A model generated the notes under the pieces. It was not told the DNA's origin. It was given only the letters and a program-made list of their open reading frames with translations, and made no database searches. Below, piece after piece: positions 3,329-62,892 of a stretch of DNA of 64,000 nucleotides. Numbering within the stretch: position 1 is the stretch's first letter; every line of letters begins with the position of its first letter. The position numbers and the translations under genes were made by a program. The DNA is taken from positions 19,497 to 83,496 of the forward strand of contig JAFZEA010000002.1 in the NCBI GenBank assembly GCA_017560905.1, written 5' to 3'. Origin of the DNA: Clostridia bacterium. GTDB lineage: Bacteria; Bacillota; Clostridia; Oscillospirales; QAKW01.

Positions 3329-4408
3329 ATGAGAGTTTACAATTTTTCCGCCGGCCCCTCTGTGTTGCCGGAAGCCGTTTTGAAAAGAGCACAGGATGAA
3401 ATGCTTTGCTATAAGAACAGTGGTCAGTCCGTCATGGAAATGAGTCACCGATCTAAGGAGTACGGCGAGATTATTGCCTCCGCCGAGGCACTGCTCAGAA
3501 AGATTATGAACATTCCCGAAAATTATAAAGTCCTCTTTTTGCAGGGCGGTGCCTCCAGCCAGTTTGCTATGGTTCCCCTCAATCTGATGACCAAGAATAA
3601 AAAGGCTGATTATGTTGTAACCGGCGCCTGGGCAAAAAAAGCCTACAAGGAAGCCTGCCGTTACGGCGAATGCAGAGTGGTCGCCTCTTCCGAAGACAAG
3701 ACCTTCAGCTATATTCCCGAACTTGATGCTTCCACTTTTGACAAGGATGCCGATTTCTTCCACATCTGTATGAACAACACCATCTACGGCACCAAGTTCC
3801 CCCGTCTGCCCGAAACCGGTGACGTTCCGCTGGTAGCCGATATGTCTTCTTGCATCCTCAGTGAGCCTGTAGACGTTTCCAAGTTCGGTGTTATCTATGC
3901 AGGCGCACAGAAAAATATGGCTCCCGCAGGTCTGACCGTAGTTATCATCCGTGAAGATCTGATCGGCGAACCACAGGACATCACCCCCACCATGTTCCGC
4001 TACAGCACCCACGCTGAGAACGATTCCATGTTCAATACTCCTCCCTGCTACTGCATTTATGTACTGGGTCTGGTACTGGAGTGGCTGGACTCTCTGGGCG
4101 GTCTGGAAGAGATGAAAAAGATTAACGAAAAGAAAGCTGCTATGCTTTATGATTATCTCGACTCCTCCGCTATGTTCAGTGCTACCGTACAGGGTGACAG
4201 TCGTTCTCTGATGAACATTCCCTTTGTTACCGGTGATGCGGATCTCGACAAAAAGTTTATTGCCGCCGCTACAGCCGCCGGTTTTGTCAACCTCAAGGGT
4301 CACCGTTCGGTAGGCGGTATGCGTGCCAGCATCTACAATGCTATGCCCGTAGAAGGTGTGGAAGCCCTGGTTGAATTCATGAAGAAATTTGAAAAGGAAA
4401 ATGCATAA
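3329..4408 (+). CDS. serC: phosphoserine aminotransferase
   Basis: 359 aa with a full-length class-V aminotransferase SerC pattern (FSAGPS..., HRSKEY, GGASSQF). Stop overlaps the serA ATG. Confidence 0.95.
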   Translation: MRVYNFSAGPSVLPEAVLKRAQDEMLCYKNSGQSVMEMSHRSKEYGEIIASAEALLRKIMNIPENYKVLFLQGGASSQFAMVPLNLMTKNKKADYVVTGAWAKKAYKEACRYGECRVVASSEDKTFSYIPELDASTFDKDADFFHICMNNTIYGTKFPRLPETGDVPLVADMSSCILSEPVDVSKFGVIYAGAQKNMAPAGLTVVIIREDLIGEPQDITPTMFRYSTHAENDSMFNTPPCYCIYVLGLVLEWLDSLGGLEEMKKINEKKAAMLYDYLDSSAMFSATVQGDSRSLMNIPFVTGDADLDKKFIAAATAAGFVNLKGHRSVGGMRASIYNAMPVEGVEALVEFMKKFEKENA

Positions 4409-8441: not shown

Positions 8442-8450
8442 AATATTGAA

Positions 8451-8550
8451 GCAGAGTAGACGGACAGGCGTTAAGTGGTTTTGGGACGGGGAGTTGCCCG
8501 AAACACGAAAAGTTTTTTGAACTTGCGGTTTGTCCATCGCATCCCGCTGC
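8451..8550 (+). promoter_or_regulatory. THF (tetrahydrofolate) riboswitch, folT motif
   Basis: GCAGAGTAGACGGACAGGCGTTAAGTG ... GCGGTTTGTCCATCGCATCCCGCTGC matches the conserved THF-I core and P1/P2 pairing as remembered from the Eubacterium siraeum crystal construct. It lies directly upstream of folT. Confidence 0.85.
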
Positions 8551-8605
8551 GTTGTATAGTGGATCTCTACAACCAACGGAAATCATAAAAAAGGAGGAGT
8601 CTACT

Positions 8606-9151
8606 ATGCAAAAGTTTTTTAAAAAATTCTCAGAGTCTGTCAAACAGCTGCGAAATGTCAGAACGCTCACGATCGGCGGTCTGCTGATTGCCCTGTATGT
8701 TTTACTGGGTACATTTGTGCACTTTTATCCCAGCGATTCTATCAAGATCAGTTTTGAATTTATCATTCTGGCGGCGGCCGGCTTTTTGTGCGGCCCCGTA
8801 ATGGCTATGTTGGTGGGCGGTGTCGGCGACATACTGGCCTGGCTTGTGCATCCGCACGGTGCACTCATCCCCGGCATTACGATCGCCACGGCGCTGGCAG
8901 GAATGTTATTCGGTCTGTTTTTTTACAAAGAGCGCATTGCCCTGCCCCGTTGCATTACGGCCGCCATTGCCGAAACCGTAGTCATAGAACTGCTGCTCAA
9001 GGTAGCGGTGCTGGCCTCGTTTTACAGTACGACATTTTGGGCGATGCTGATTACGAGAGTGCCTGTCGAGTTGATTATGACAGTCATTATGTGCTTTTTC
9101 AATTTTGCATTTCTTAAAATGATAAAGCCCATCAAAAAAAGGTTAAACTAA
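8606..9151 (+). CDS. folT: folate-family ECF transporter S component
   Basis: 181 aa, 5-6 TM helices, strong RBS aaaggagg. Family pattern plus the THF riboswitch upstream. Confidence 0.85.
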   Translation: MQKFFKKFSESVKQLRNVRTLTIGGLLIALYVLLGTFVHFYPSDSIKISFEFIILAAAGFLCGPVMAMLVGGVGDILAWLVHPHGALIPGITIATALAGMLFGLFFYKERIALPRCITAAIAETVVIELLLKVAVLASFYSTTFWAMLITRVPVELIMTVIMCFFNFAFLKMIKPIKKRLN

Positions 9152-9154
9152 ATG

Positions 9155-9380
9155 AAAAAGGAAGTTGCATTTCGTCAACAAAACTCCGTCGGCGCACGTG
9201 GGTACGGTAGGAGATTTGTTGGCAAAAAACAGAGAAAAGCCTTGCAGAGCATGGCTTCCCCAGAAAAATCAAATGTTAATGTTGGGATTTGGATCGGAGT
9301 TTGTGACTTTAGTAAGTATGAACTCTTTTCTTTTATTTTCTCTTCTTCTCTGTGGTGAAACTACTTTTTTGACAGTCTGA
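9155..9380 (+). repeat. dispersed ~225-nt structured element, copy 1 (candidate ncRNA / miniature mobile element)
   Basis: Aligns end to end with 13822..14046. The 15-bp stem 9173..9187/9210..9224 is compensatorily different from copy 2. Lies between the folT stop and its terminator. Confidence 0.7.
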
Positions 9381-9410
9381 AAAAGGTGCTGCCTTGGGCA
9401 GCACCTTTTT
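9380..9410. terminator. intrinsic (bidirectional) terminator
   Basis: aaaaaggtgctgcc / ggcagcaccttttt. Confidence 0.8.
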
Positions 9411-9445
9411 GATTTGATTTGCATATAATATTACGGTGATTTTTT

Positions 9446-9679
9446 ATGAACTATACATTTCGAGAACTGCGCAAAAAGGAAATTATTGATCTGTGTGACG
9501 GTGCCCGTCTGGGTTTTGCAGAAGATCTGGTCATCGACGGTTGCGGTAACATACTGTGTGTCACCGTCCCGCCCAGCGGCTTTCACTTCCCTTTCGGCAA
9601 GGGTGAATGTCTGCAGATTCCTTGGAAAAACATTCAGCGCATCACAACAGAAACCATCTGGGTCAAGCTCAATCCGTAA
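9446..9679 (+). CDS. ylmC: YlmC/YmxH-family sporulation protein (PRC-barrel)
   Basis: 77 aa, ELRKKEIIDLCDGARLGFAEDLVID pattern. Confidence 0.8.
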   Translation: MNYTFRELRKKEIIDLCDGARLGFAEDLVIDGCGNILCVTVPPSGFHFPFGKGECLQIPWKNIQRITTETIWVKLNP

Positions 9680-10652
9680 TCTTATTTTTCAAAAATTCAT
9701 GCCAACGCGTCGCGGCGGCATCGAGGTCGTAGCGCCAATACCACACGCCGTTATATATGCCGCCGTCAGGATTATCCGCCTTATCGGGCAGTACACATTC
9801 ACGAATGTTCCAATCGCAACGCGCCGCATCCAGCATAGCCTCCGTCAACTCGCCGATGCTGAGGGTGGTTTCCAATCGCGGCAAAAATTCACGCAACAAT
9901 TTGGGATATTCAAATATGTTTTTCTCCAGCAATTTATCCATCAATCTCTGAATGACCACTCGCTGACGGCCGGAGCGCGCCGCTTCATTATCAATATTAC
10001 GAATACGGCCGTAGGCTGTCACCTGCAGTCCCGTAAGATGCACAAAGCCCGACTGTGTGAGCCTTTCACTGCCGCCCATAGATACCACAAGCGAATTGAT
10101 ATTGTTGCGCTCCGCCTCGGTGATCTCCATATCCAATCCTCCGACAGCGTCCACAAGCATAGCCACGTCAGAAAAATCCAGCACCAGATATTCCGATATA
10201 TTCATATCAAAGTTACTGTTGATGGTATTGAGCATCAGTTCTGCTCCGCCGTAGGCATAGGCGTGGTTGATCTTATCGTGTCCGTGTCCTTGGACGGCAA
10301 CATAGCTGTCACGGAGAATGGAGGTCAGCTTGATCTGCTGATTTTGCATATCCACCGTAAAGATCATAACACTGTCTGCACGACCTACATAGCTCTCATA
10401 AGTGTCTACGCCGAATACTGCTACGTGAAACAGATCGTTTTTAGGTGCATCTTCGGACAAGCTGATCTTTTCTGTGTTGATCTCCACGACCTGTGACTCA
10501 AATTCACCGAACGTATAGTAGTACAAGCCTACCGCAGAGGCGATCAGTATCAAAGCAATGGCGCCCACCGCAATTCCGAAAATTTGCCAGAAGCGGCGAA
10601 TGCTTTTTTTGTTTTTTCTTTTTTTCTTAGTTTTCATTTGATTATTGCTCAT
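9669..10652 (-). CDS. LytR-CpsA-Psr (LCP) family cell-wall glycopolymer ligase
   Basis: 327 aa. Basic N-terminus plus TM, RADSVMIFTVD...LTSILRDSYV...INHAYAYGG motifs. Confidence 0.85.
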   Translation of the reverse strand: MSNNQMKTKKKRKNKKSIRRFWQIFGIAVGAIALILIASAVGLYYYTFGEFESQVVEINTEKISLSEDAPKNDLFHVAVFGVDTYESYVGRADSVMIFTVDMQNQQIKLTSILRDSYVAVQGHGHDKINHAYAYGGAELMLNTINSNFDMNISEYLVLDFSDVAMLVDAVGGLDMEITEAERNNINSLVVSMGGSERLTQSGFVHLTGLQVTAYGRIRNIDNEAARSGRQRVVIQRLMDKLLEKNIFEYPKLLREFLPRLETTLSIGELTEAMLDAARCDWNIRECVLPDKADNPDGGIYNGVWYWRYDLDAAATRWHEFLKNKITD

Positions 10653-12123
10653 TTACATAATCAACAAAACGCATAAAAGCATCTTGATCTTTATATACAC
10701 CGCCATGCTCCAGCACCCTACAAAATACCTTGCCGATCTCATTTTGCAAAATTTCATCAATATTTTCTTCGGTAATACTCTCATAGCAAGGCAAGAATTC
10801 CTCAACCCAAGCTTTGTGCTTTTCAAGTTCACCGTGAATGGGCTTACCATTTAAGATGGCATCTTTGAGTTGTGCCATTTCATCCTTGAGTCGTGCAGGC
10901 AGTACCGCCAGACCCATAACCTCGATAAGACCGATATTTTCTTTTTTGATGTGGTGCAACTCAGCGTGGGGATGGTACAAACCAAATGGATGCTCCTCGG
11001 TGGTCAGATTGTTGCGAAGTACCAGATCCAGTTCAAAGTCCTCTCCTCGTCTGCGGGCAATGGGAGTGATGGTATTATGAGGTACGCCGTCTGTTTCGGC
11101 AAAGATGACCGACGCTTCATCGGTGTAACCTCGCCAGGCTCCAAGGATTTTATCCGCCAGGTCGACCAGCACGTCTTTATCCGCAGAGCGAAGGCGCAGT
11201 ACGCTCATAGGCCACTTGACAATACTCGCTTTGACCTGCCCAAAGCCCTTAAACTCCACTTGTTTTGCAATAGGAGCACGCTCCATGGCGAATTCAAAGT
11301 GTCCGCCCTGAAAATGATCGTGGGTCAATATAGAGCCACCCACAATGGGCAGGTCGGCGTTGGAGCCCAGAAAATAGTGCGGAAAGATTGTCGTAAACTG
11401 CAACAGTCTTTCAAAAGTCTTGCGGCTGATTTTCATAGGTGTATGCTCACCGCACAGCACAATGCAGTGCTCATTGTAATAAACATAGGGAGAATACTGC
11501 AAAAACCACTCTTCCCCACTCAGGTCCAACGGAATGATACGGTGATTCTGTCGGGCGGCGGCATTCATTCTGCCGGCATAGCCCTCGTTTTCCTTGCAAA
11601 GAGCGCATTTGGGATAATTACTGGACTTGCTGTTGAGTGCGGCGGCGATCGCCTTGGGATCTTTTTCGGGTTTGGAAAGATTGATGGTAATATCCAGATC
11701 GCCATACGGTGTGGCGGTCTGCCACTTCACATCTTTACAGATGCGGTAGCGGCGAATGTAGTCACTGTCCTGACTGAAAGCATAATAATTATCGGTAGCC
11801 AGCACAGGATCCTCGGCATAATCTGCCCAAAATCCTGCGATCACTTGGCTGGGGCGAGGCATAAGAAGTCCCATCAGTTTTGCATCAAACAGATCACGCT
11901 CGGTCTGACTCTCTGCATCAATGAGTCCCTTTTTAGCAGCAAAATCAAGCAAGTCGCCCAATATTTCCTCCAGAGGTCTCTCCAAAGCTTTTCTGTCGGG
12001 AGAAAAGTCCGACATTCCCAGAGCAGAGAGCAAACTGTTTGTCACAAAAATTTCATCCTCAGCACGCAACAGATTACAGCTGACACCATAATCCACCAAA
12101 TCTAAAATGGCATTATCAACCAT
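10642..12123 (-). CDS. galT: UDP-glucose--hexose-1-phosphate uridylyltransferase (type 2 GalT)
   Basis: 493 aa from MVDNAILDL, typical of the Firmicute long-form GalT. The ORF-track start 12183 has no RBS. Confidence 0.88.
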   Translation of the reverse strand: MVDNAILDLVDYGVSCNLLRAEDEIFVTNSLLSALGMSDFSPDRKALERPLEEILGDLLDFAAKKGLIDAESQTERDLFDAKLMGLLMPRPSQVIAGFWADYAEDPVLATDNYYAFSQDSDYIRRYRICKDVKWQTATPYGDLDITINLSKPEKDPKAIAAALNSKSSNYPKCALCKENEGYAGRMNAAARQNHRIIPLDLSGEEWFLQYSPYVYYNEHCIVLCGEHTPMKISRKTFERLLQFTTIFPHYFLGSNADLPIVGGSILTHDHFQGGHFEFAMERAPIAKQVEFKGFGQVKASIVKWPMSVLRLRSADKDVLVDLADKILGAWRGYTDEASVIFAETDGVPHNTITPIARRRGEDFELDLVLRNNLTTEEHPFGLYHPHAELHHIKKENIGLIEVMGLAVLPARLKDEMAQLKDAILNGKPIHGELEKHKAWVEEFLPCYESITEENIDEILQNEIGKVFCRVLEHGGVYKDQDAFMRFVDYVNEQ

Positions 12124-12167
12124 TTGACTCACCTCACTTGTATAGTTAATATTTATTATACATAACC

Positions 12168-12196
12168 TTGACGAAAAATGCAAGATATGATATCAT
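12168..12196 (+). promoter_or_regulatory. candidate sigma-A promoter
   Basis: TTGACG, 17 nt, TATCAT. RBS ggagg lies before ATG 12222. Confidence 0.45.
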
Positions 12197-12221
12197 TACC
12201 CATAAGTTTGGAGGCATAAAA

Positions 12222-13127
12222 ATGAACAAGCAGAAACTTAAAGGTAATCTGATGATGCTGTTGACCGCATTGATCTGGGGCACTGCCTTTGTCGCACAAA
12301 GCAGCGCTATGGACAGTGTAGATCCCTTTTCATTTATGGCGGCGCGCAATTTGTTGGGTGCCATAGTACTGATACCCGTAATATTAATATTTTCTGACAA
12401 AAAAGCAAAGTCCGATCAAAAAAATACATGGATCGGCGGTGTCGTTTGCGGCGCAATACTGTTTGTAGCCTCGGCACTTCAGCAGTACGGTCTGGTCTAC
12501 ACCACCACAGCCAAGGCAGGATTTATTACAACACTCTATGTGGTACTTGTTCCGCTGGCCGGCCTGTTTCTGGGCAAAAAAGTAATGCCGGTGGTATGGA
12601 TCAGTGTGTTGCTGAGCGTGGTCGGTTTTTATTTCTTGTGCATCAACGAAAACTTTACTCTGGCACCGGGAGATCTGTTGGTCTTGCTGTGCGCCGTAGC
12701 CTTTACGGTGCATATTATGGTGATAGATCACTTTTCCCCCAAGGCAGACGGCATCAAGATGTCCTGTATACAGTTTTTGGTCTGCGGTTTGCTGAGTCTG
12801 CTGTTCTCTTTGATTTGCGGCCCGGCAAGTCCGCAGGCACTGCTGTCAGCGTGGATACCCATTCTTTACACGGGTATTCTGTCCAGCGGCGTAGCCTATA
12901 CCCTGCAGATCTTGGCGCAGAAATTCACCGACGCTGTGATGGTCAGCCTGATCGGTTCGTTGGAAGCGGTGTTCGCCACGCTTTTCGGTTTCCTTTTCTG
13001 GAAGATCGGCTACATAGACAACGGAAATGTAACACTGCAACAGTTGGGCGGTTGTGCTCTTGTATTTGCCGCCGTTATTCTGGTACAGCTTCCCCTCAAA
13101 AAAGGTGAAAAATATGAAACTTCTTAA
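12222..13127 (+). CDS. DMT-superfamily (EamA) transporter
   Basis: About 10 TM helices with two EamA-like halves. Start at MNKQKLKG behind an RBS. Confidence 0.8.
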   Translation: MNKQKLKGNLMMLLTALIWGTAFVAQSSAMDSVDPFSFMAARNLLGAIVLIPVILIFSDKKAKSDQKNTWIGGVVCGAILFVASALQQYGLVYTTTAKAGFITTLYVVLVPLAGLFLGKKVMPVVWISVLLSVVGFYFLCINENFTLAPGDLLVLLCAVAFTVHIMVIDHFSPKADGIKMSCIQFLVCGLLSLLFSLICGPASPQALLSAWIPILYTGILSSGVAYTLQILAQKFTDAVMVSLIGSLEAVFATLFGFLFWKIGYIDNGNVTLQQLGGCALVFAAVILVQLPLKKGEKYETS

Positions 13128-13767
13128 ACACATTGTATTCATTTTGCTGACAGCGGCATCCGTGGCGCTGTATCTGTTTTTCGATTTCAAGATAGTGTTC
13201 TTTACGATTTCGGCACTGCTTGTCAATACCGCCTGCACAAAACTACAGTATCACATCACCTACAAAAATGCCTGCATGTATTCCTTTAAAAAATACCCGA
13301 TCGGCTTTATGGCACTGCCGCCGTACATCCTGTGCTTTGGCAACATTGCGGCCCTGCAGAAAAGTAATATTCCGGAATACTCCAATCCTCTTTATCATGA
13401 AAACTTGTTTAAATGGTGCTACACATGGGGCTCACTGCTGATGCTGATCACACTGTTTTTGTGGGTGGGTATGCTTGCCATGAATCTCTTCGGTTCGCTA
13501 AAATACGGCTACTACGGCATCAATATCCTATCTGCCGTAGGTTTAGGTGCCTGCCTGTATGTTGCAACCGATATCTTCGCTATGGGAACACGGTACAGTA
13601 CGATATTTATGGTATTGACCATACTCTATGAGATATTGTTTGTACTGCTGTGGTTTTATCTGAGAAAGAAAAATATCCAACCCGTCAACCGTGCCTTCTT
13701 TGCGCTGGCCGATCAAGACGAGCTTTTATGGAGAAAAAAACTAAAAGATAAGCGATGGAGAGACTAA
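13114..13767 (+). CDS. hypothetical polytopic membrane protein
   Basis: 217 aa from MKLLKH (RBS aaggtga), 5-6 hydrophobic helices. No family recognised. Confidence 0.5.
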   Translation: MKLLKHIVFILLTAASVALYLFFDFKIVFFTISALLVNTACTKLQYHITYKNACMYSFKKYPIGFMALPPYILCFGNIAALQKSNIPEYSNPLYHENLFKWCYTWGSLLMLITLFLWVGMLAMNLFGSLKYGYYGINILSAVGLGACLYVATDIFAMGTRYSTIFMVLTILYEILFVLLWFYLRKKNIQPVNRAFFALADQDELLWRKKLKDKRWRD

Positions 13768-13780
13768 CTCTCCATCGCTT
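13750..13780 (+). repeat. 31-bp direct repeat, left copy (terminator-type hairpin overlapping CDS end)
   Basis: aagcgatggagagactaactctccatcgctt, identical to 14047..14077. Confidence 0.95.
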
Positions 13781-13812
13781 CAGCGTGTCAAAGAACCCTC
13801 TTTGACGCGCTG
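13781..13812. repeat. 14-bp-stem hairpin adjoining element copy 2
   Basis: cagcgtgtcaaaga-accc-tctttgacgcgctg (one G-U pair). Confidence 0.6.
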
Positions 13813-13821
13813 GAGGTTGTC

Positions 13822-14046
13822 AAAAAGGAAGTTGCATTTCGCCGATGCGGTCTCGTCGGCGTACGTGGGTACGGTAGAGGTCGCATCGGCGGAAAACAGA
13901 GAAAAGCCTTGCAGAGCAAGGCTTCCCCAAACGATACTTTTGTCATGAATTGATTTTGGAAAGAATTGAGATTTTGTATATAGTACAAACTTGTTTTCTT
14001 TTATTTTGTTATTTCTCTGTGGTGAAACGACTTTTTTGACAGTCTG
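13822..14046 (+). repeat. dispersed ~225-nt structured element, copy 2
   Basis: Same architecture as 9155..9380, with stem 13840..13854/13877..13891. Confidence 0.7.
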
Positions 14047-14077
14047 AAGCGATGGAGAGACTAACTCTCCATCGCTT
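14047..14077. terminator. 31-bp direct repeat, right copy; functional bidirectional terminator between the 13114 gene and mnmA
   Basis: gcgatggagag / ctctccatcgc stem followed by TTTTATTTT. Abuts the mnmA stop. Confidence 0.8.
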
Positions 14078-15136
14078 TTATTTTATAATTCCGCCGCCCA
14101 ACACGGTATCTCCGTCATAGAATACCGCACTCTGCCCTGCGGCGGGGCGCTTTTGCGGAGTGTCAAACAGCACTGTAATCCCATCCGACTCCGGTATCAG
14201 CGTAGCCTGCACAGGGGGAGCCTGATATCTGGTGACGACCTCGGCTCGCAGTGCAGAAACAGGTGGTTGTATGGCGATCCAGTTGACCTCTCCCACACAG
14301 ATGCGCTCGATCAGCAGTGCTTCACGAGGGGCAACAACGATCTCATTTTTTTGCAAATTCTTTTCGATCACATAACCCGGCTGCGGCAATGCCAACCCCA
14401 GTCCGCGGCGTTGGCCCACGGTATAACCGATCAGCCCTTTATGCCGCCCCAGTACATTGCCTTCGAGATCTACAAAGTCGCCCTCGGGATAGTCCTTTCC
14501 CGTATATCGGGAAATAAAATCAGCATACGCCCCGTCGGGCACAAAACAGATGTCCTGACTGTCGGGACGAAGTGCATTGTCAAATCCTCGCTCCGCCGCC
14601 AAAGCCCGCACCTGCTCCTTGCTCTCGATCTCACCCAATGGAAAACAGGTGTGTGCCAGTTGCTCCTGAGAGAGAAAATACAACACGTAGCTCTGATCTT
14701 TGCGCTTATCCTTTGCCCGTTGCAACAGATAACGCTCGCCGTCAAAGGTCACACGAGCATAATGCCCCGTTACGACCTTGTCACAGCCCAACTCTTTGAC
14801 ACGTTGGTACAGACGGCCAAACTTCATATGGCGGTTACACTCAATACAGGGGTTGGGCGTTTGCCCCGCTTCATAACTGCGAACAAAAGGCTCTACCACC
14901 GTACGGACAAATTCATCCGAGCAATCCACTGCTTCAAACGCCATCCCGAGCCGCCGAGCGACCGCAGCGGCGTCAGCGGCATCCTGCGGTGAACCGCACT
15001 TTTCTCCGTAGATTTCCTTGCTTTCGGGGTGCAGTTTCATAGTGATGCCCACACCCTCGTAACCCGACTCGAGCATCAGCGCGGCGGCCACCGAGCTGTC
15101 CACGCCGCCACTCATAGCGATCAACGCTTTTTTCAC
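14078..15136 (-). CDS. mnmA: tRNA 2-thiouridine(34) synthase
   Basis: 352 aa, PP-loop AMSGGVDSS, CxxC region NPCIECN. Confidence 0.95.
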   Translation of the reverse strand: MKKALIAMSGGVDSSVAAALMLESGYEGVGITMKLHPESKEIYGEKCGSPQDAADAAAVARRLGMAFEAVDCSDEFVRTVVEPFVRSYEAGQTPNPCIECNRHMKFGRLYQRVKELGCDKVVTGHYARVTFDGERYLLQRAKDKRKDQSYVLYFLSQEQLAHTCFPLGEIESKEQVRALAAERGFDNALRPDSQDICFVPDGAYADFISRYTGKDYPEGDFVDLEGNVLGRHKGLIGYTVGQRRGLGLALPQPGYVIEKNLQKNEIVVAPREALLIERICVGEVNWIAIQPPVSALRAEVVTRYQAPPVQATLIPESDGITVLFDTPQKRPAAGQSAVFYDGDTVLGGGIIK

Positions 15137-19698: not shown

Positions 19699-20210
19699 CT
19701 ATTTTTCTTCAGCGTTTTGTGAGCGGTAATATGCAGGTGACACGCCGTAATGTTTTTTAAATTCCCGGGAAAAGTGGCAGGGTTCAAAATAACCGCACAT
19801 CAACGCAATTTCGCTGACACTGAATTGTCCGCTTTCCAGCAGACGCTTTGCGTGTTCCATTCTGAGCTTTATGATATACTCTTTGGGGCTGAGTGAAAAT
19901 TTGTCCATAAACAGCCGACGAAAGTATGCCTCACTGATGCCGCAAAGACGGGCCATATCTTTTACCGACAGGTCATTACTTGTAAAATCCCGATTGATCG
20001 TATCAACGGCAGGCTGTATAAGCAGTTCTTTACCGCTTGGCATATAGGTGCGCTGCTGTTCTTTTTGAATCTTAATGATAATATCATAAATATTTTTTCT
20101 TATAACTATATCTGTTTTTTCATTCCAGGCGGCAAGGGCATCCTTGAAATTCTTTAAAACAGATTCGTGGTTTCTGAATTTTATATCAAACGGCTTTTCG
20201 TCCGTTTCAA
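19699..20210 (-). pseudogene. 5'-truncated AraC-family regulator (C-terminal HTH part only)
   Basis: The frame is open without a start back to the intron fragment. The HTH_AraC region (GISEAYFRRLF...FSREFKKHYGVSP) is intact and the sensor domain is missing. Confidence 0.7.
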
Positions 20211-20371
20211 GTATGCCTTATATGCAGTTTCTGTTCGTCAGACCGAGGTTTTGCCTCCGACTTCCTTCAGACTCCACCTCACGATGGACACCCTTGTCTT
20301 TGGCTAACAGTTCCTACTGCCAAGCCTGTAGCGGACTTTCACCGCCAAGTTATAACGCGTGCCGAGCGCAC
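20211..20371 (-). mobile_element. group II intron (class C-like) 5' fragment, domain I only
   Basis: The minus strand reads GTGCGCTCGGCACGCG...GGTGAAAGTCCG...GTTAGCCAAAGACAAGGGTGTCC...GTCTGAAGGAAGTCGGAGGCAAA...GGTCTGACGAACAGAAACTGCATATAAGGC. From memory this closely parallels the Oceanobacillus iheyensis IIC intron. It starts 6 nt after a terminator hairpin. Confidence 0.75.
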
Positions 20372-20376
20372 AGTAT

Positions 20377-20406
20377 AAGAAGGACTACCGCATTGGCAGT
20401 CCTTCT
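20377..20406 (-). terminator. terminator hairpin of the AraC gene (intron insertion target)
   Basis: gaaggact / agtccttc stem, then TTATACT and the intron 5' GTGCG. Confidence 0.6.
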
Positions 20407-58248: not shown

Positions 58249-58275
58249 TTAGCACTCTATTTGTGAGAGTGCTAA
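58249..58275. promoter_or_regulatory. CIRCE operator upstream of clpB
   Basis: TTAGCACTC-N9-GAGTGCTAA, a perfect consensus, 95 nt before the clpB ATG. Confidence 0.9.
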
Positions 58276-58370
58276 GAATTAACAGTTTGTTCATAGTTCG
58301 TTCACACTTTTTGGCATTTTATCGTGTAGAATACAGACAGAAAGTTGATTTGAAAAGGAGTGTGATCTTG

Positions 58371-60959
58371 ATGAACGCACAAAAATTTACTCAAAAATCT
58401 ATGGAAGCATTGCAAAGTGCGCAGCGTCTTGCCGCGGAATACAGCGCCGCCGCCATCGAACAGGAGCATCTGTTGGTCGCATTGCTTACGCAGGAAAACG
58501 GACTCATCTCCGAACTGATCACCAAGCTGACCGGAGCTGCAGAACAGTTTACCGCAGAAGCCGTCAGACAAATGGAAAGTCTACCCAAGGTCAGCGGCTC
58601 TGCCAACAACACCTATGTTTCTCAGCTTGCCGAAAAAACGCTCAGCCAAAGCGAAAAGCTATCTGAAAATATGAGGGACGAATACGTTTCTGTCGAGCAT
58701 ATATTTCTGGCACTCTTTGAAACCGCAGGTCAAAACATCAAAAAACTGTTTGTTACCTACGCCATTGACAAGCAGGATATTCTCTCTGCCCTGCAACAGG
58801 TGCGCGGCAGTCAGCGCGTTACCTCCGACAATCCCGAGAGCACCTATGATGCGCTGAAAAAATACGGCACCGATCTGGTGGAAAAAGCCAGAGGCAAGAC
58901 CGTAGACCCCGTCATCGGCAGGGATAGCGAGATTCGAAATGTTATCCGCATTCTCTCCCGTAAAACCAAAAACAATCCCGTACTCATCGGTGAGCCGGGT
59001 GTGGGCAAAACTGCCATTGCAGAAGGGCTTGCACAGCGCATCGTCAAGGGTGACGTCCCCGCTTCTCTCAAGGATAAAACGGTATTTTCGCTGGATATGG
59101 GTGCTCTTATCGCCGGTGCAAAATATCGGGGTGAATTTGAAGAGCGACTCAAAGCTGTGCTTTCGGAAATTAAACAATCCGATGGCAGGATCATTTTGTT
59201 CATCGACGAGCTGCACACCATCGTAGGCGCAGGTAAGAGCGACGGTGCTATGGATGCAGGCAATCTGCTCAAGCCCATGCTTGCCAGAGGTGAGCTGCAC
59301 TGTATCGGCGCCACCACACTGGACGAATACCGCCAGTACATTGAAAAAGATGCGGCACTGGAACGCAGATTTCAGCCCGTATTGGTAGAAGAACCGACGG
59401 TGGAGGATACCGTATCCATTTTGCGCGGACTAAAAGAGCGCTACGAGGTATACCACGGTGTCAAGATCCAGGACAATGCCATCATTGCCGCCACTACCCT
59501 CTCCGACCGCTATATTACCGATCGCTTTTTGCCCGACAAAGCCATTGACCTGATCGACGAAGCCTGCGCTATGATTCGTACAGACCTTGACTCGATGCCC
59601 GGTGAGCTGGATCTCATCCGCCGCAAGATCATTCAGTTTGAAATCGAAGAGGCTGCGCTGAAAAAAGATCAGGATGCCATCACGGCAGAGCGGCTGAAAG
59701 CCCTGCAAAAAGAACTGGCAGAGCTTAGAGAGGACTTTACCGCCAAAAAGGCTACCTGGGAAAACGAAAGGAACGCCATTGAAAAGATCCAGTCACTGCG
59801 CGCTGAGATAGAGCAGGTCGGCAGAGAAATCGAGCAAGCAGAAGAAGCCTATGATCTCAGCCGCGCCGCCGAGCTCAAATACGGCCGTCTGCCCAAACTC
59901 AGAGAAGAACTGAGTGCTCTGGAAGAACAAGCCGAAAAGACCAAAAACGGAACCTCTTTGCTTCGTGACAGAGTCACAGAAGAAGAGATCGCCTTGATCG
60001 TCGAGCGATGGACGGGTATTCCCGTAGCCAAGCTTATGGAGGGCGAGCGCGAAAAATTATTGCATCTGGATGACATTCTGCACAAGAGGGTCGTGGGGCA
60101 GAACGATGCAGTCAACAAGGTGTGTGAAGCCATTTTGCGTTCAAGAGCAGGCATCAGCGATCCTCACCGCCCCATCGGATCCTTTTTGTTCTTAGGTCCC
60201 ACGGGTGTGGGCAAGACTGAGCTTGCAAAAGCGCTGGCCGAGGCGCTGTTTGACGACGAGCACAACATCGTGCGCATTGATATGAGCGAATATATGGAAA
60301 AGTTTTCCGTGTCCCGTCTTATCGGCGCACCGCCCGGATACGTAGGATACGAGGAGGGTGGACAGCTCAGTGAAGCCGTACGCCGCCGTCCCTATTCCGT
60401 GGTACTCTTTGACGAGATCGAAAAAGCCCATCCTGACGTCTTTAACATTCTTTTGCAGGTGCTGGACGACGGACGGATCACCGATTCTCAAGGGCGCACC
60501 GTCGACTTTAAAAACACCATTCTCATTATGACCTCCAACCTTGGCTCAGAGTATCTCCTGGAGGGCACCGACGAAAACGGTTACATCGTCGAAAGCGCCG
60601 TTGCGCAGGCGGAAGCATTGCTCAAGCGCTCTTTTCGTCCTGAATTTCTCAACCGTCTGGATGAGATCGTGTACTATAAGCCGCTGAGCAAAAAGGATAT
60701 CACGGCCATTATGGAACTGATGCTTGGGGATGTCAACCGCCGTCTGGCAGACAAACAGCTTTGCTGTCGTCTGTCCCCTGCCGCTAAGGACTTTATCATC
60801 GAAAACGGCTATGATCCTCTGTACGGCGCCAGACCGCTCAGACGCTTTCTACAAGCGCACGTCGAAACCGCACTGGCCAAAAAAATGATCGCCGAGGATC
60901 TGTTGCCCGGCACCACCCTGACCATAGATGCAGAAAACGGTAAACTTTTTATAAAATAG
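58371..60959 (+). CDS. clpB: ATP-dependent chaperone ClpB
   Basis: 862 aa from [10 protein letters not shown] (RBS aaaggag). Two AAA+ modules ([16 protein letters not shown]) and a long M-domain coiled coil. The ORF-track start 58263 lies inside CIRCE. Confidence 0.96.
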
Positions 60960-60970
60960 AATACCAAAGA

Positions 60971-61012
60971 AAAAAGTGCTGTAAAAAACAGTTGTTTTTT
61001 ACAGCACTTTTT
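60971..61012. terminator. bidirectional terminator (20-bp arms)
   Basis: aaaaagtgctgtaaaaaaca-gt-tgttttttacagcacttttt. Confidence 0.85.
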
Positions 61013-62892
61013 TATTTTTTAAAGTGGCGGCAGGTATTTGCCATACACAAGGCAAATATGCGCAGTGCCGTTTCTGCCAGTGCAATCACCCACAGCGGCA
61101 TCCAGCCGACAAGCAGCAGTATGGTCAGCAGTACCTTAAGTCCTGCCGTAACCGCGGGAATAACGATCATATGACGGTGCAGTTTATAAGAGAGTATAAA
61201 ACTGTGCAACACACCGATGGGATCGTCGGAAAGGACCATAATATCCGCCGTGGTACCGCCAATATCATCTTCCAGTGTTTTCATCGAAAAGGAAATATCC
61301 GCCGCTTGGAGGCATCCTTTATCAACATCGTCACCGACGTAGGCTATGTAACTGCCGTGTCTTCCCTTACGGGCATTACGTGCTACCGCCTGCTCTTTGC
61401 CTGCCACATCCAACTGAGCAAACACACGGTGCAGACCCAATGTAGCCCCCACGTTTTCCGCATTATGTTTTTTATCACCTGTGATCAGGTCCAGAGAATG
61501 CAGTCCCAGCGCAAACAGTCCGTTGGTGGTTTCTGTGGAGGTATTTTTAAGCGGGTCGTGCAAGATAACGCAACCGATATACGTATCTTCCACACCGACA
61601 AAGCAGATCATACCCTGTCCGTGATACGGCAACACCTGAATGCCTGCACGTGTCATAAGCAGATCGTTACCCACAAAAATACGCTGTCCATCCACCACGG
61701 CACATACGCCCTCACCCGGAATTTCCATTTGATGTTCGGGCTTTGGCAGGTCGACAACTCCCGCCTCACGCACAATGGCCTTGGCAATCAAATGATTACT
61801 GATCTGTTCGCCGCAAGCCGCATAATAAAGCAGTTGTTCCTTGGTATATTCATTATGAGGCACCACTTCATCCACGATAAAGGTGCGCTGTGTGAGAATA
61901 CCTGTTTTGGAAAAGATCATATCGGTAATGCGGCGAAGGAGCATCAGCTGACGGCAATTCTGCACCAAAACACCCTCACGACAAAGGGCGGTGAGCGCCA
62001 CGAAAAACAGCAATCTGATCGTTTCGGCAATGTCGGTAAAAGCGCTGAGCATCAGTATTCCCGCTCCGCGGTACAGCGCCGTTGTCCAAGGCAATGCGCC
62101 GAACAACGGTACAAACAAACCGACAATCACCGCCAATACAAGCCACGCAATACGAACAAACGGCAAAAATCGGGCAAACAATTTTTGCATGGCGGCGGGG
62201 CGTGTCAGGGCCGTTTGAGATAAAGCGTGTATCTTTTGCGCCAGACACTGCGGTCCTGCCGCAACTACCTTAACACTAACCGTCTGTCCATGATTGACAC
62301 CGCCGCAATAAACTCGGCTGTCCTTGGCAAAAGGCACCGTTCTGTGATGGTGCACAAAATTGGAATAATCCACCGAGCCCTCACCGCTGAGAACGATACC
62401 GTCAGCGGGAAAAATTTCACCGGAATATACTTCAATCTGCGCACCTGCCGCCAGCTGTGCTACAGGCACGGCAGCGAGTCGATCACCTGTGCGCACTCTT
62501 GCCCGAAGGCCGCCAAGTGCCTCATAATATTCCGCTTCCTCCAGAAGACTTGCAGCAAAATGTCTTTTGAACCAAAAGCCTGCCGCCAGTATAATGAGCA
62601 TCAGTACGCTTTCCAGCATATATCCTGTCGACAACGCAATAATGCCCGCCAGTGCTACGGCAGTCCGAGCAGTTGGCTTTTTGTCAATTATCTCTGCCAG
62701 TGCGCCCCAAATCACTTCCCATATGGCCGCCGACCAAGCGATCAGGCACAGCCAAAGCCTATGGTCGGGCAAGCAAAGCGCCGTTAAAAGAAGTACCGCC
62801 GACAAAGCAAGCGTAACGGGTCTGACCCAACGGCGCCAAGGCTGTTCACTGTCAAACAACAATTTGATTTGATTTACTTTTTTCAGTTCCAC
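61012..62892 (-). CDS. P1B-type ATPase homologue with degenerate catalytic motifs (probable pseudo-ATPase)
   Basis: 626 aa, intact ORF. It keeps the fold landmarks (GEIFPADG, ITGD, VGDD) but reads SKTGI for DKTGT and has no TGES, no CPC and no HMA domain. Confidence 0.7.
   Translation of the reverse strand: MELKKVNQIKLLFDSEQPWRRWVRPVTLALSAVLLLTALCLPDHRLWLCLIAWSAAIWEVIWGALAEIIDKKPTARTAVALAGIIALSTGYMLESVLMLIILAAGFWFKRHFAASLLEEAEYYEALGGLRARVRTGDRLAAVPVAQLAAGAQIEVYSGEIFPADGIVLSGEGSVDYSNFVHHHRTVPFAKDSRVYCGGVNHGQTVSVKVVAAGPQCLAQKIHALSQTALTRPAAMQKLFARFLPFVRIAWLVLAVIVGLFVPLFGALPWTTALYRGAGILMLSAFTDIAETIRLLFFVALTALCREGVLVQNCRQLMLLRRITDMIFSKTGILTQRTFIVDEVVPHNEYTKEQLLYYAACGEQISNHLIAKAIVREAGVVDLPKPEHQMEIPGEGVCAVVDGQRIFVGNDLLMTRAGIQVLPYHGQGMICFVGVEDTYIGCVILHDPLKNTSTETTNGLFALGLHSLDLITGDKKHNAENVGATLGLHRVFAQLDVAGKEQAVARNARKGRHGSYIAYVGDDVDKGCLQAADISFSMKTLEDDIGGTTADIMVLSDDPIGVLHSFILSYKLHRHMIVIPAVTAGLKVLLTILLLVGWMPLWVIALAETALRIFALCMANTCRHFKK

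Follow-up and report, generated by a model that had tools for sequence, protein, structure and literature searches.

The question raised by this locus is whether a repeated intergenic element of Clostridia, found twice in the 64-kb stretch of contig JAFZEA010000002.1 analyzed here, is a structured RNA, a miniature mobile element or both. Its two copies lie next to folT and mnmA, respectively, and were first noticed because the two arms of one stem differ between them while the pairing is preserved. The preliminary description of this DNA, made without database searches, had suggested a structured RNA not yet described or a miniature mobile element, and both halves of that proposal are now supported, the former by covariation and the latter by insertions with target duplication. 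The element, termed family A, is a non-autonomous mobile element whose insertion at the feet of a palindromic terminator leaves that terminator duplicated, and its + strand fold is under selection. In the following, the window is the whole 64-kb stretch, to which unlabeled positions refer, and L-numbers (e.g., L004, L087) are labels of the loci examined.

Two copies of family A in the window

The segments 9155..9379 (copy 1) and 13822..14046 (copy 2) of the + strand align end to end on the same strand, as previously described, and the window contains every conserved block exactly two times, against a chance expectation of 0. A covariance model of the P2 stem-loop, called R1 and run without filters on the window, matched only copy 2 (86.4 bits, +) and copy 1 (72.3 bits, +), while the − strand scored 15.7 and 12.5 bits at the two sites. 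Direct reading of both arms (9173-9187/9210-9224 in copy 1, 13840-13854/13877-13891 in copy 2) reproduced the reported count of two-sided, pair-preserving changes at 7 of 15 pairs (positions 5, 7, 8, 9, 10, 13 and 14) and two one-sided, G-U-compatible changes (positions 3 and 12), as well as the single base by which the 22-nt apical segments differ; a single internal A.A mismatch is present in the copy 1 stem. The pairing is kept despite the rewriting, as claimed, but the helix has 18 pairs (9170-9187 with 9210-9227 in copy 1) rather than 15. When folded on the + strand and compared with shuffled sequences, copy 1 gave a z-score of -4.5 and copy 2 (13781-14082, downstream terminator included) a z-score of -10.7; the folding energy of copy 2 alone is -110.8 kcal/mol.

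The extents given earlier, although they delimit segments that do align, needed correction at both ends: the 3' end lies at 9379 in copy 1, not 9380, and at 14046 in copy 2, and the real 5' end of the unit lies at 13781, which adds a 32-nt hairpin (13781-13812), termed H0. The presence of H0 in copy 2 and its absence from copy 1 indicate that the complete unit is 13781..14046 and that copy 1 is 5'-truncated. Copy 1 also lacks an upstream palindrome and most of the P1 5' strand, and in comparison with the syntenic full-length element in L087, about 83 nt are absent from its 5' side. Thus, copy 2 is an intact insertion, and copy 1 is a 5'-deleted relic incorporated into the 3' untranslated region (UTR) of folT. 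Because no terminator separates them, copy 1 must be co-transcribed with folT, and since a tetrahydrofolate (THF) riboswitch (87 bits) occupies 8450-8551 (+) directly upstream of folT, copy 1 belongs to the 3' UTR of a riboswitch-controlled transporter gene.

Duplication of the terminator palindrome

Both copies had been placed between a stop codon and an intrinsic terminator. This is too simple for copy 2, on either side of which stands one unit of a perfect 31-bp direct repeat (13750-13780 and 14047-14077), the terminator palindrome itself, and the upstream repeat overlaps the stop codon (13765-13767) of the gene at 13114..13767. The view that the element merely precedes a terminator was accordingly revised, in that the element duplicates the terminator palindrome. 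The flanks of 56 full-length elements were then surveyed with a simple hairpin finder. Full-length elements are joined on both sides 0-2 nt from the palindrome feet, and precise termini with duplicated flanking palindromes were found in about 45 of the 56. The two flanking palindromes are identical and in the same orientation at 28 loci, differ by a few bases in the loop at 7, and are different at 7; at 5 loci (L004, L023, L045, L048 and L072), the arms are identical and one loop is reverse-complemented (flip/flop). One locus has a self-complementary, hence uninformative, loop, and at the other 8 the flank is imperfect or truncated and was not resolved by the hairpin finder. Near-flips of the palindrome loop were seen in L105, L111 and L087. 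The duplicated palindrome measures 22-34 bp and tracks palindrome size, so the duplication is set by structure rather than by a fixed stagger.

The target palindromes have no conserved sequence and are hit recurrently and in both orientations. An instructive case is a site that is empty in the window, a single bidirectional terminator palindrome at 60970-61013, since its orthologue in L004 carries a subfamily-1 element between two palindrome copies and that in L084 carries a subfamily-2 element, in the opposite orientation, between two palindrome copies. A comparison of the folT and mnmA loci showed a full-length element at the folT-ylmC site in L087 and an inverted element adjoining mnmA in L069. 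No empty allele was found in the same strain, as all contigs with identical FolT, membrane protein or MnmA carry both window copies, and no within-species presence/absence polymorphism was seen among same-strain contigs. One of these contigs (L117, ~3410-3420) has a run of N and an intergenic region 15 nt shorter inside copy 2, probably an artefact of repeat assembly.

The targets are mostly bidirectional terminators that separate convergent genes. Of the elements at informative sites, between tandem genes, 10 are co-oriented and 6 anti-oriented with the neighboring genes, i.e., there is no bias, which fits a symmetric attack on a symmetric target. A first impression that 85-90% of copies follow the direction of the terminator was withdrawn after this count.

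Conserved fold and strand

The minimum free energy (MFE) structure of one member was mapped onto an alignment of 49 sequences (copy 2 and 48 others), yielding 74 pairs in seven helices (H0, P1, P1b, P2, the apical hairpin, P3 and P3a). The fraction of paired cells in this alignment is 89.1%, compared with 38-44% in controls with slid partners, and two-sided changes occur at 51 of the 74 pairs. The covariation score of 0.347, versus 0.07-0.09 in slid controls, was reached by 0 of 500 shuffles. Changes on both sides affect 11 of 14 pairs in H0 (helix 1), 11 of 15 in P1 (helix 2, with many G-U pairs), 5 of 8 in P3 and 6 of 9 in P3a (helices 6 and 7), and all 18 stem pairs of P2 when 72 P2 modules are compared. 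The P3 pairing (acagagaa/ttctctgt) and the local hairpin P3a (gccttgc/gcaaggc), both pointed out in the preliminary description, are hence borne out. In divergent metagenomic members, even the otherwise invariant apical hairpin covaries (CGUAU/AUACG) and its tetraloop varies, leaving GUCGGCGUAC...GUACG as the constant core of the apical region. On the + strand, the fold of the interior comprises a closing helix P1/P1b, a long, variable P2 capped by a conserved loop, and a P3/P3a domain, all kept by compensatory change; a covariation-supported fold on one strand is also what characterizes structured non-coding RNAs in general. The open reading frames (ORFs) of the element are short and not conserved across copies, showing that it is non-coding and agreeing with the earlier suggestion that selection acts on structure and not on protein. 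One further idea, that the variable stem guides the choice of target in the manner of a bridge RNA or omega RNA, was rejected on inspection, as copies with the same stem lie at unrelated palindromes.

G-U pairs outnumber A-C combinations by 168 to 27 in P1, P1b and P2 and by 51 to 8 in 29 independent P2 lineages, and this excess shows that the + strand is the folded or exposed strand. In H0, the corresponding counts are 14 and 18, i.e., without strand asymmetry, which fits a site in duplex DNA. The G-U evidence had earlier been regarded as contradictory. That doubt arose from a rare C variant in the apical hairpin of copy 1, at a position that is U-A in 69 of 72 family members, and is resolved in favor of the + strand.

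The exposure of one strand and the hairpins at the element's borders bring to mind transposition of single-stranded DNA (ssDNA) by an HUH (Y1) enzyme, as for the IS200/IS605 PATEs or the RAYT-mobilized REPINs. Under this explanation, H0 and the P1 hairpin would be recognized on the + strand, and insertion would take place beside hairpins that the lagging-strand template exposes. In favor of this, a perfect, REP-like palindrome (H0) forms the extreme end of the element, both element boundaries fall at hairpin feet, folding or exposure concerns the + strand, and, as with REPINs, no transposase is found within the elements. However, known HUH transposition involves no target duplication and a short, sequence-specific target, whereas here the targets share no sequence and are as a rule duplicated over 22-34 bp. 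The lack of strand asymmetry in H0 and the inverted repeats at the termini also speak against it, making an HUH enzyme a distinctly unlikely explanation.

Distribution and modular organization

Homologues are abundant. A scan of the genome collection with the apical 21-mer gave at least 111 loci, and the matches listed all belong to Oscillospiraceae, Acutalibacteraceae or other Clostridia metagenome-assembled genomes (MAGs) from human, mouse, goat and buffalo gut. Family-A copies number several to a MAG, and many of the matches are at the ends of contigs. In the listed copies, the variable P2 stem is rewritten in nearly every lineage with complementarity kept. The complete family-A unit is about 230-310 nt long, begins with CAGCG and ends in ...TTTTTTGACAGTCTG. 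Nearly all full-length copies possess H0, a perfect hairpin, in the form CAGCGTGTC[A/G]A..loop..T[C/T]GACACGCTG, followed by GCAGACTGCAAAAAAGG. The two termini are imperfectly inverted (5' end CAGCGTGTC[A/G]A..., 3' end, read as its reverse complement, CAGACTGTC[A/G]A...), the H0 5' arm being an inverted repeat of the element's 3' end, and the two ends co-vary between subfamilies.

No Rfam family matches the element, either at the gathering score over the window or at E<=10 over 8900-14300, and none matched over the elements of 17 related loci (families A, B and other elements with H0). A phage or plasmid origin was rejected, as no family-A match was found in the phage and plasmid collections (blastn) or in viral contigs (two pattern scans). 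Full-text literature searches returned no description of the family-A element, only the analogies with IS1272 and bcr1 discussed below.

A metagenome scan for H0 alone yielded 120 loci, and the P2 module, as recognized by R1, is present in 16 of the first 100. The remaining H0 elements have ~125-131, 193-206 or 215-224 nt between H0 and the 3' end, filled by unrelated, hairpin-rich interiors. These elements (among L121-L240) are non-coding, have H0 and the ...TTTTCGACAGTCT end in common with family A, and gave no Rfam match among those searched. In the shortest class, both flanks could be read for about six (L126, L129, L135, L149, L212 and L240), and here too the palindromes are duplicated. 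Conversely, family B (~260 nt) contains a P2 stem with the same 22-nt apical motif between different ends (GGGGGTGGCTCA/TGAGCCAGCCCC); it shows no duplication of a terminator palindrome and no obvious target duplication, and its flanks are A-rich on the 5' side and T-rich on the 3' side. The occurrence of shared ends with unrelated interiors, and of P2 under other ends, suggests that the ends form a transposition module and that the interiors are exchangeable. Family A is one family within a superfamily of multi-copy insertions, small and non-coding, that occur in Clostridia of gut and rumen.

Some arrangements are more complex. In L109 (1-600) and L230 (5830-6730), two elements stand in tandem with a further copy of the same palindrome between them; in L088 (2128-2559), a second body without H0 is fused directly to the first element; and in L230 and L010, an extra hairpin module of ~55 nt is found beside P2.

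This modularity bears on two explanations that give the folded RNA the leading part. One is RNA-mediated mobility resembling that of short interspersed nuclear elements (SINEs), in which the + transcript would be the intermediate and a reverse transcriptase (RT) would recognize the P2 loop and copy the RNA into nicks at the palindrome feet, staggered nicks then giving the long duplication. Selection on the whole element for a + strand fold with G-U excess agrees with such a route, and the P2 module occurs in two families with different ends, just as SINEs share a recognition motif with long interspersed nuclear elements (LINEs). Moreover, copy 1 and a few other copies are 5'-truncated, and class C group II introns, a fragment of one of which lies in the window, also home to terminator hairpins. 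However, the ends are common to elements without P2, showing that P2 is not the determinant of mobility; both ends are precise and mutually inverted; there is no A-tail and no 3' heterogeneity; and the 5' truncations are rare and look like deletions. With orientation random relative to transcription, a duplication symmetric about the palindrome, and no RT gene near any copy, the RNA-mediated route is unlikely.

The other is that the element is a host-beneficial small RNA (sRNA) or 3'-UTR module, such as a stabilizer, insulator or protein sponge, which would be selected by the host and whose mobile features would be secondary. This would agree with the conservation of fold and loop across diverged subfamilies, the element at the folT-ylmC site in two genera, the necessary co-transcription of copy 1 with folT, and the terminator-like character of P3a and its T-rich tract on the − strand. 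The same ends, however, carry quite different interiors, indicating that spread is a property of the ends and not of an RNA cargo, and the copies occupy unrelated loci in both orientations, differ in presence or absence between relatives, and have no promoter. A host function as the primary reason for the element's existence is thus very improbable. Whatever its bearing on this point, P3a followed by TTTTCTCTGTTTTCC scores as terminator-like on the − strand at 13900-13928 and at the copy 1 equivalent, so that the element could stop antisense read-through from a convergent gene.

Proposed mechanism of transposition

The explanation that we favor, at a probability of roughly 60%, is that family A is a non-autonomous transposon with IS1272-like, structure-specific integration, which needs a single-stranded form of the + strand and whose conserved loop is a site of docking. 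The shared ends CAGCGTGTC/GACAGTCTG would be bound by a transposase acting in trans, most likely of the DDE type and with IS1272-like structure-dependent targeting. Paired strand transfers would occur at the two 5' feet of the target palindrome, recognized by its shape and not its sequence, and gap filling would then duplicate the palindrome. The single-stranded + form, required for persistence or spread, could be a read-through transcript from a neighboring gene or an ssDNA intermediate, and the conserved P2 loop may serve as the docking site for a trans-acting factor. Both the probably DDE-type, structure-specific enzyme and the role of the single-stranded form with its loop are parts of the proposal that we infer from the signatures described above.

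An enzyme was sought by searching well downstream of P2 or H0 for 3' ends, by looking for the two arms of a split H0 separated by 0.7-4 kb, by inspecting the ORFs in L172, L175, L226 and L230, and by clustering all ORFs of at least 200 aa. Among the candidate autonomous partners, only housekeeping genes and tandem elements turned up in the 240 loci.

Several observations weigh against the transposon proposal. Neither the 240 loci, which cover 1.7 Mb, nor the collections of phage, plasmid and viral sequences yielded an autonomous, ORF-bearing element with family-A ends, so the transposase is hypothetical. No excision footprints, i.e., tandem palindromes without an element, were found in the 1.7 Mb, and the loop flips at 5 loci are not predicted by simple gap filling. 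IS1272 itself deletes the hairpin, whereas family A duplicates it. In addition, promoter scoring and inspection of the subfamilies revealed no conserved internal sigma-70-like promoter (TTGACA occurs in H0 and at the 3' end without a matching -10), so transcription would rest on read-through. Finally, a DDE mechanism alone gives no reason to keep long-range helices, the G-U asymmetry and a conserved loop.

A more far-reaching version would make the fold a part of the machinery. Family A would then represent an undescribed class of bacterial transposons, whose mobility needs a folded single-stranded + RNA or DNA, with hairpin feet recognized at both donor ends and targets, the P2 loop recruiting a mobilizing or host factor, and an enzyme of possibly new type; in such a system, structure would be matched to structure and terminators would be copied whole. 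We regard this version as rather doubtful.

Comparison with known systems

Family A resembles known kinds of elements, namely MITEs (miniature inverted-repeat transposable elements) with RNA structure and structure-targeting insertion sequences (ISs), of which it is a variant. The closest parallel in targeting is IS1272/TnSha1 of the IS1182 family in Staphylococcus, which targets terminator hairpins by structure, in both orientations and the same terminator repeatedly, and whose left end can bear tandem copies of the terminal repeat (PMC4923244, PMC5678879). IS1272 deletes part or all of the stem-loop and produces no target duplication (PMC4923244), although Wan et al. drew a whole stem-loop being duplicated when the attack falls on its 5' feet (PMC5678879, Fig 13 pathway b). 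The two have in common a hairpin or inverted-repeat target without sequence consensus, insertion in both orientations and recurrence. Unlike family A, which is non-coding, IS1272 is autonomous and encodes a 548-aa transposase; in family A, the whole palindrome is duplicated, an outcome only modeled for IS1272, and no IS1182-type gene is linked to it. Direct repeats of the IS1182 family are given as 0-60 bp in ISfinder.

As for the fold, bcr1 of the Bacillus cereus group offers a parallel, being a mobile, transcribed, non-coding repeat of ~155 bp whose RNA structure is kept by compensatory changes (reviewed in PMC3184786). Both are small non-coding mobile repeats with a fold preserved in this way, but bcr1 makes a 5-bp duplication, does not target terminators and has no sequence similarity to family A, which possesses a larger multi-helix fold with a conserved loop.

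Classical MITEs (Correia/NEMIS, RUP and ERIC) are likewise non-autonomous, intergenic and multi-copy with terminal inverted repeats; frequently they are co-transcribed, and they fold as RNA (see also PMC3184786). Family A agrees with them in being small and non-coding, in its terminal inverted repeats, in having a target-site duplication (an atypical one), and in being dispersed in multiple copies with presence/absence between relatives. However, classical MITEs have short fixed duplications (e.g., TA) and known cognate ISs, and their fold consists essentially of two halves pairing with each other, whereas that of family A is built of independent covarying internal helices. A cognate autonomous IS with the same ends as family A was found neither in the 240 loci (1.7 Mb) nor in the viral, phage and plasmid collections.

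REPINs with their RAYTs and the IS200/IS605 PATEs are, like family A, hairpin-bounded and non-coding with the enzyme elsewhere, and recognition of single-stranded hairpins is central to them. They differ in that their target is sequence-specific and is not duplicated and that they lack terminal inverted repeats, while family A has long duplications, inverted termini and no conserved target sequence.

The homing sites of class C group II introns are likewise at terminators, immediately 3' of the stem-loop, and these introns depend on their RNA structure. In contrast to family A, they are ribozymes of at least 600 nt with domains D1-D6 and usually an RT ORF, and they insert in one orientation only without target duplication. 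The hallmarks of such introns (5' GUGYG, D5 and D6) are absent from family A, which begins with CAGCG, and the Rfam intron models match in the window only at 20104-20288. That match (Rfam group-II-D1D4-3, 70.9 bits) lies on the − strand and represents a 5' portion of a group II intron; it begins with GTGCG a few bases after a terminator hairpin (20375-20405), a class-C-like placement, and ends after ~200 nt, followed by a fragment of an AraC-type HTH gene.

Spacer integration by Cas1-Cas2 and casposons resembles family A in that staggered attacks on both borders duplicate an often palindromic unit of ~30 bp. It differs in using a sequence-specific, leader-adjacent repeat and in the size of the inserts, ~30 bp or, for casposons, several kb, the latter with duplications of 14-15 bp. 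No cas1 context was found, and the likeness is one of mechanism only.

Implications

If the transposon proposal is true, gut Clostridia harbor a large uncatalogued superfamily that recognizes terminators by their shape and duplicates them, and its points of note are whole-terminator duplication, modular folded interiors and a missing enzyme. Such elements would break metagenome assemblies, because many contigs end inside them, and would add or reshape 3' UTRs, here that of folT, and create tandem terminators. They would also point to a chemistry of transposition in which a palindrome is attacked at its 5' feet, previously only drawn as a model for IS1272. The covarying interior, with a loop common to families with different ends, is a candidate for a new protein-binding RNA or ssDNA module, and the element could serve as a terminator-seeking insertion tool once the enzyme is found.

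Coordinates and an adjacent RNA

Table 1. Positions of the family-A copies, their parts and their target palindromes in the window, with related elements at other loci
Feature	Position	Strand	Evidence or remarks
Copy 1, 5'-truncated family-A element in the folT 3' UTR	9155..9379	+	Alignment to copy 2; R1 72.3 bits; retains P2 (9170-9187/9210-9227, apical 9188-9209), P3 (9229-9236/9346-9353), P3a (9239-9255) and P1 3' strand (9364-9379)
Single terminator palindrome directly 3' of copy 1 (AAAAAGGTGCTGCCTTGGGCAGCACCTTTTT)	9380..9410	+	Now the folT terminator
Upstream copy of duplicated host terminator palindrome (AAGCGATGGAGAGACTAACTCTCCATCGCTT)	13750..13780	+	Perfect 31-bp direct repeat with 14047-14077; terminator-like on −
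Copy 2, complete family-A element, 266 nt	13781..14046	+	Full-length alignment with 48 other elements; termini CAGCGTGTC.../...GACAGTCTG
H0, 5'-terminal hairpin of copy 2	13781..13812	+	14-bp arms cagcgtgtcaaaga/tctttgacgcgctg, one G-T mismatch
P1 5' strand of copy 2 (aggttgtcaaaaagg)	13814..13828	+	Pairs with 14031-14046; MFE folds; covarying helix 2
P2 module of copy 2	13837..13894	+	18-bp variable stem 13837-13854/13877-13894, enclosing conserved apical segment 13855-13876 (GTCGGCGTACGTGGGTACGGTA) with inner hairpin CGTAC/GTACG; R1 86.4 bits
P3 5' strand of copy 2 (acagagaa)	13896..13903	+	Pairs with 14013-14020 (ttctctgt); covarying helix
P3a hairpin of copy 2 (gccttgc/gcaaggc)	13906-13922	+	Directly after P3 5' strand; covarying helix
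3' block of copy 2	14013..14046	+	P3 3' strand, P1b 3' strand (ggtgaaac), P1 3' strand, terminal inverted repeat ...cttttttgacagtctg
Downstream copy of duplicated terminator palindrome	14047..14077	+	Followed by T-tract and convergent mnmA stop
Empty site, single bidirectional terminator palindrome	60970-61013		Between convergent genes 58263..60959 and 61012..62892
Other H0 elements, examples	L126 5840-6030; L135 1930-2130; L149 7470-7660; L220 1441-1670		
Family B elements	L003, L005, L008, L011, L013, L015, L019, L025, L033, L035, L039, L046, L050, L054, L056, L060, L065, L076, L098, L099, L108		

A Gut-1 RNA (Rfam RF01706, 64.7 bits) adjoins a tRNA at 3457-3528 of L021, 2 kb from a family-A element to which it is unrelated.

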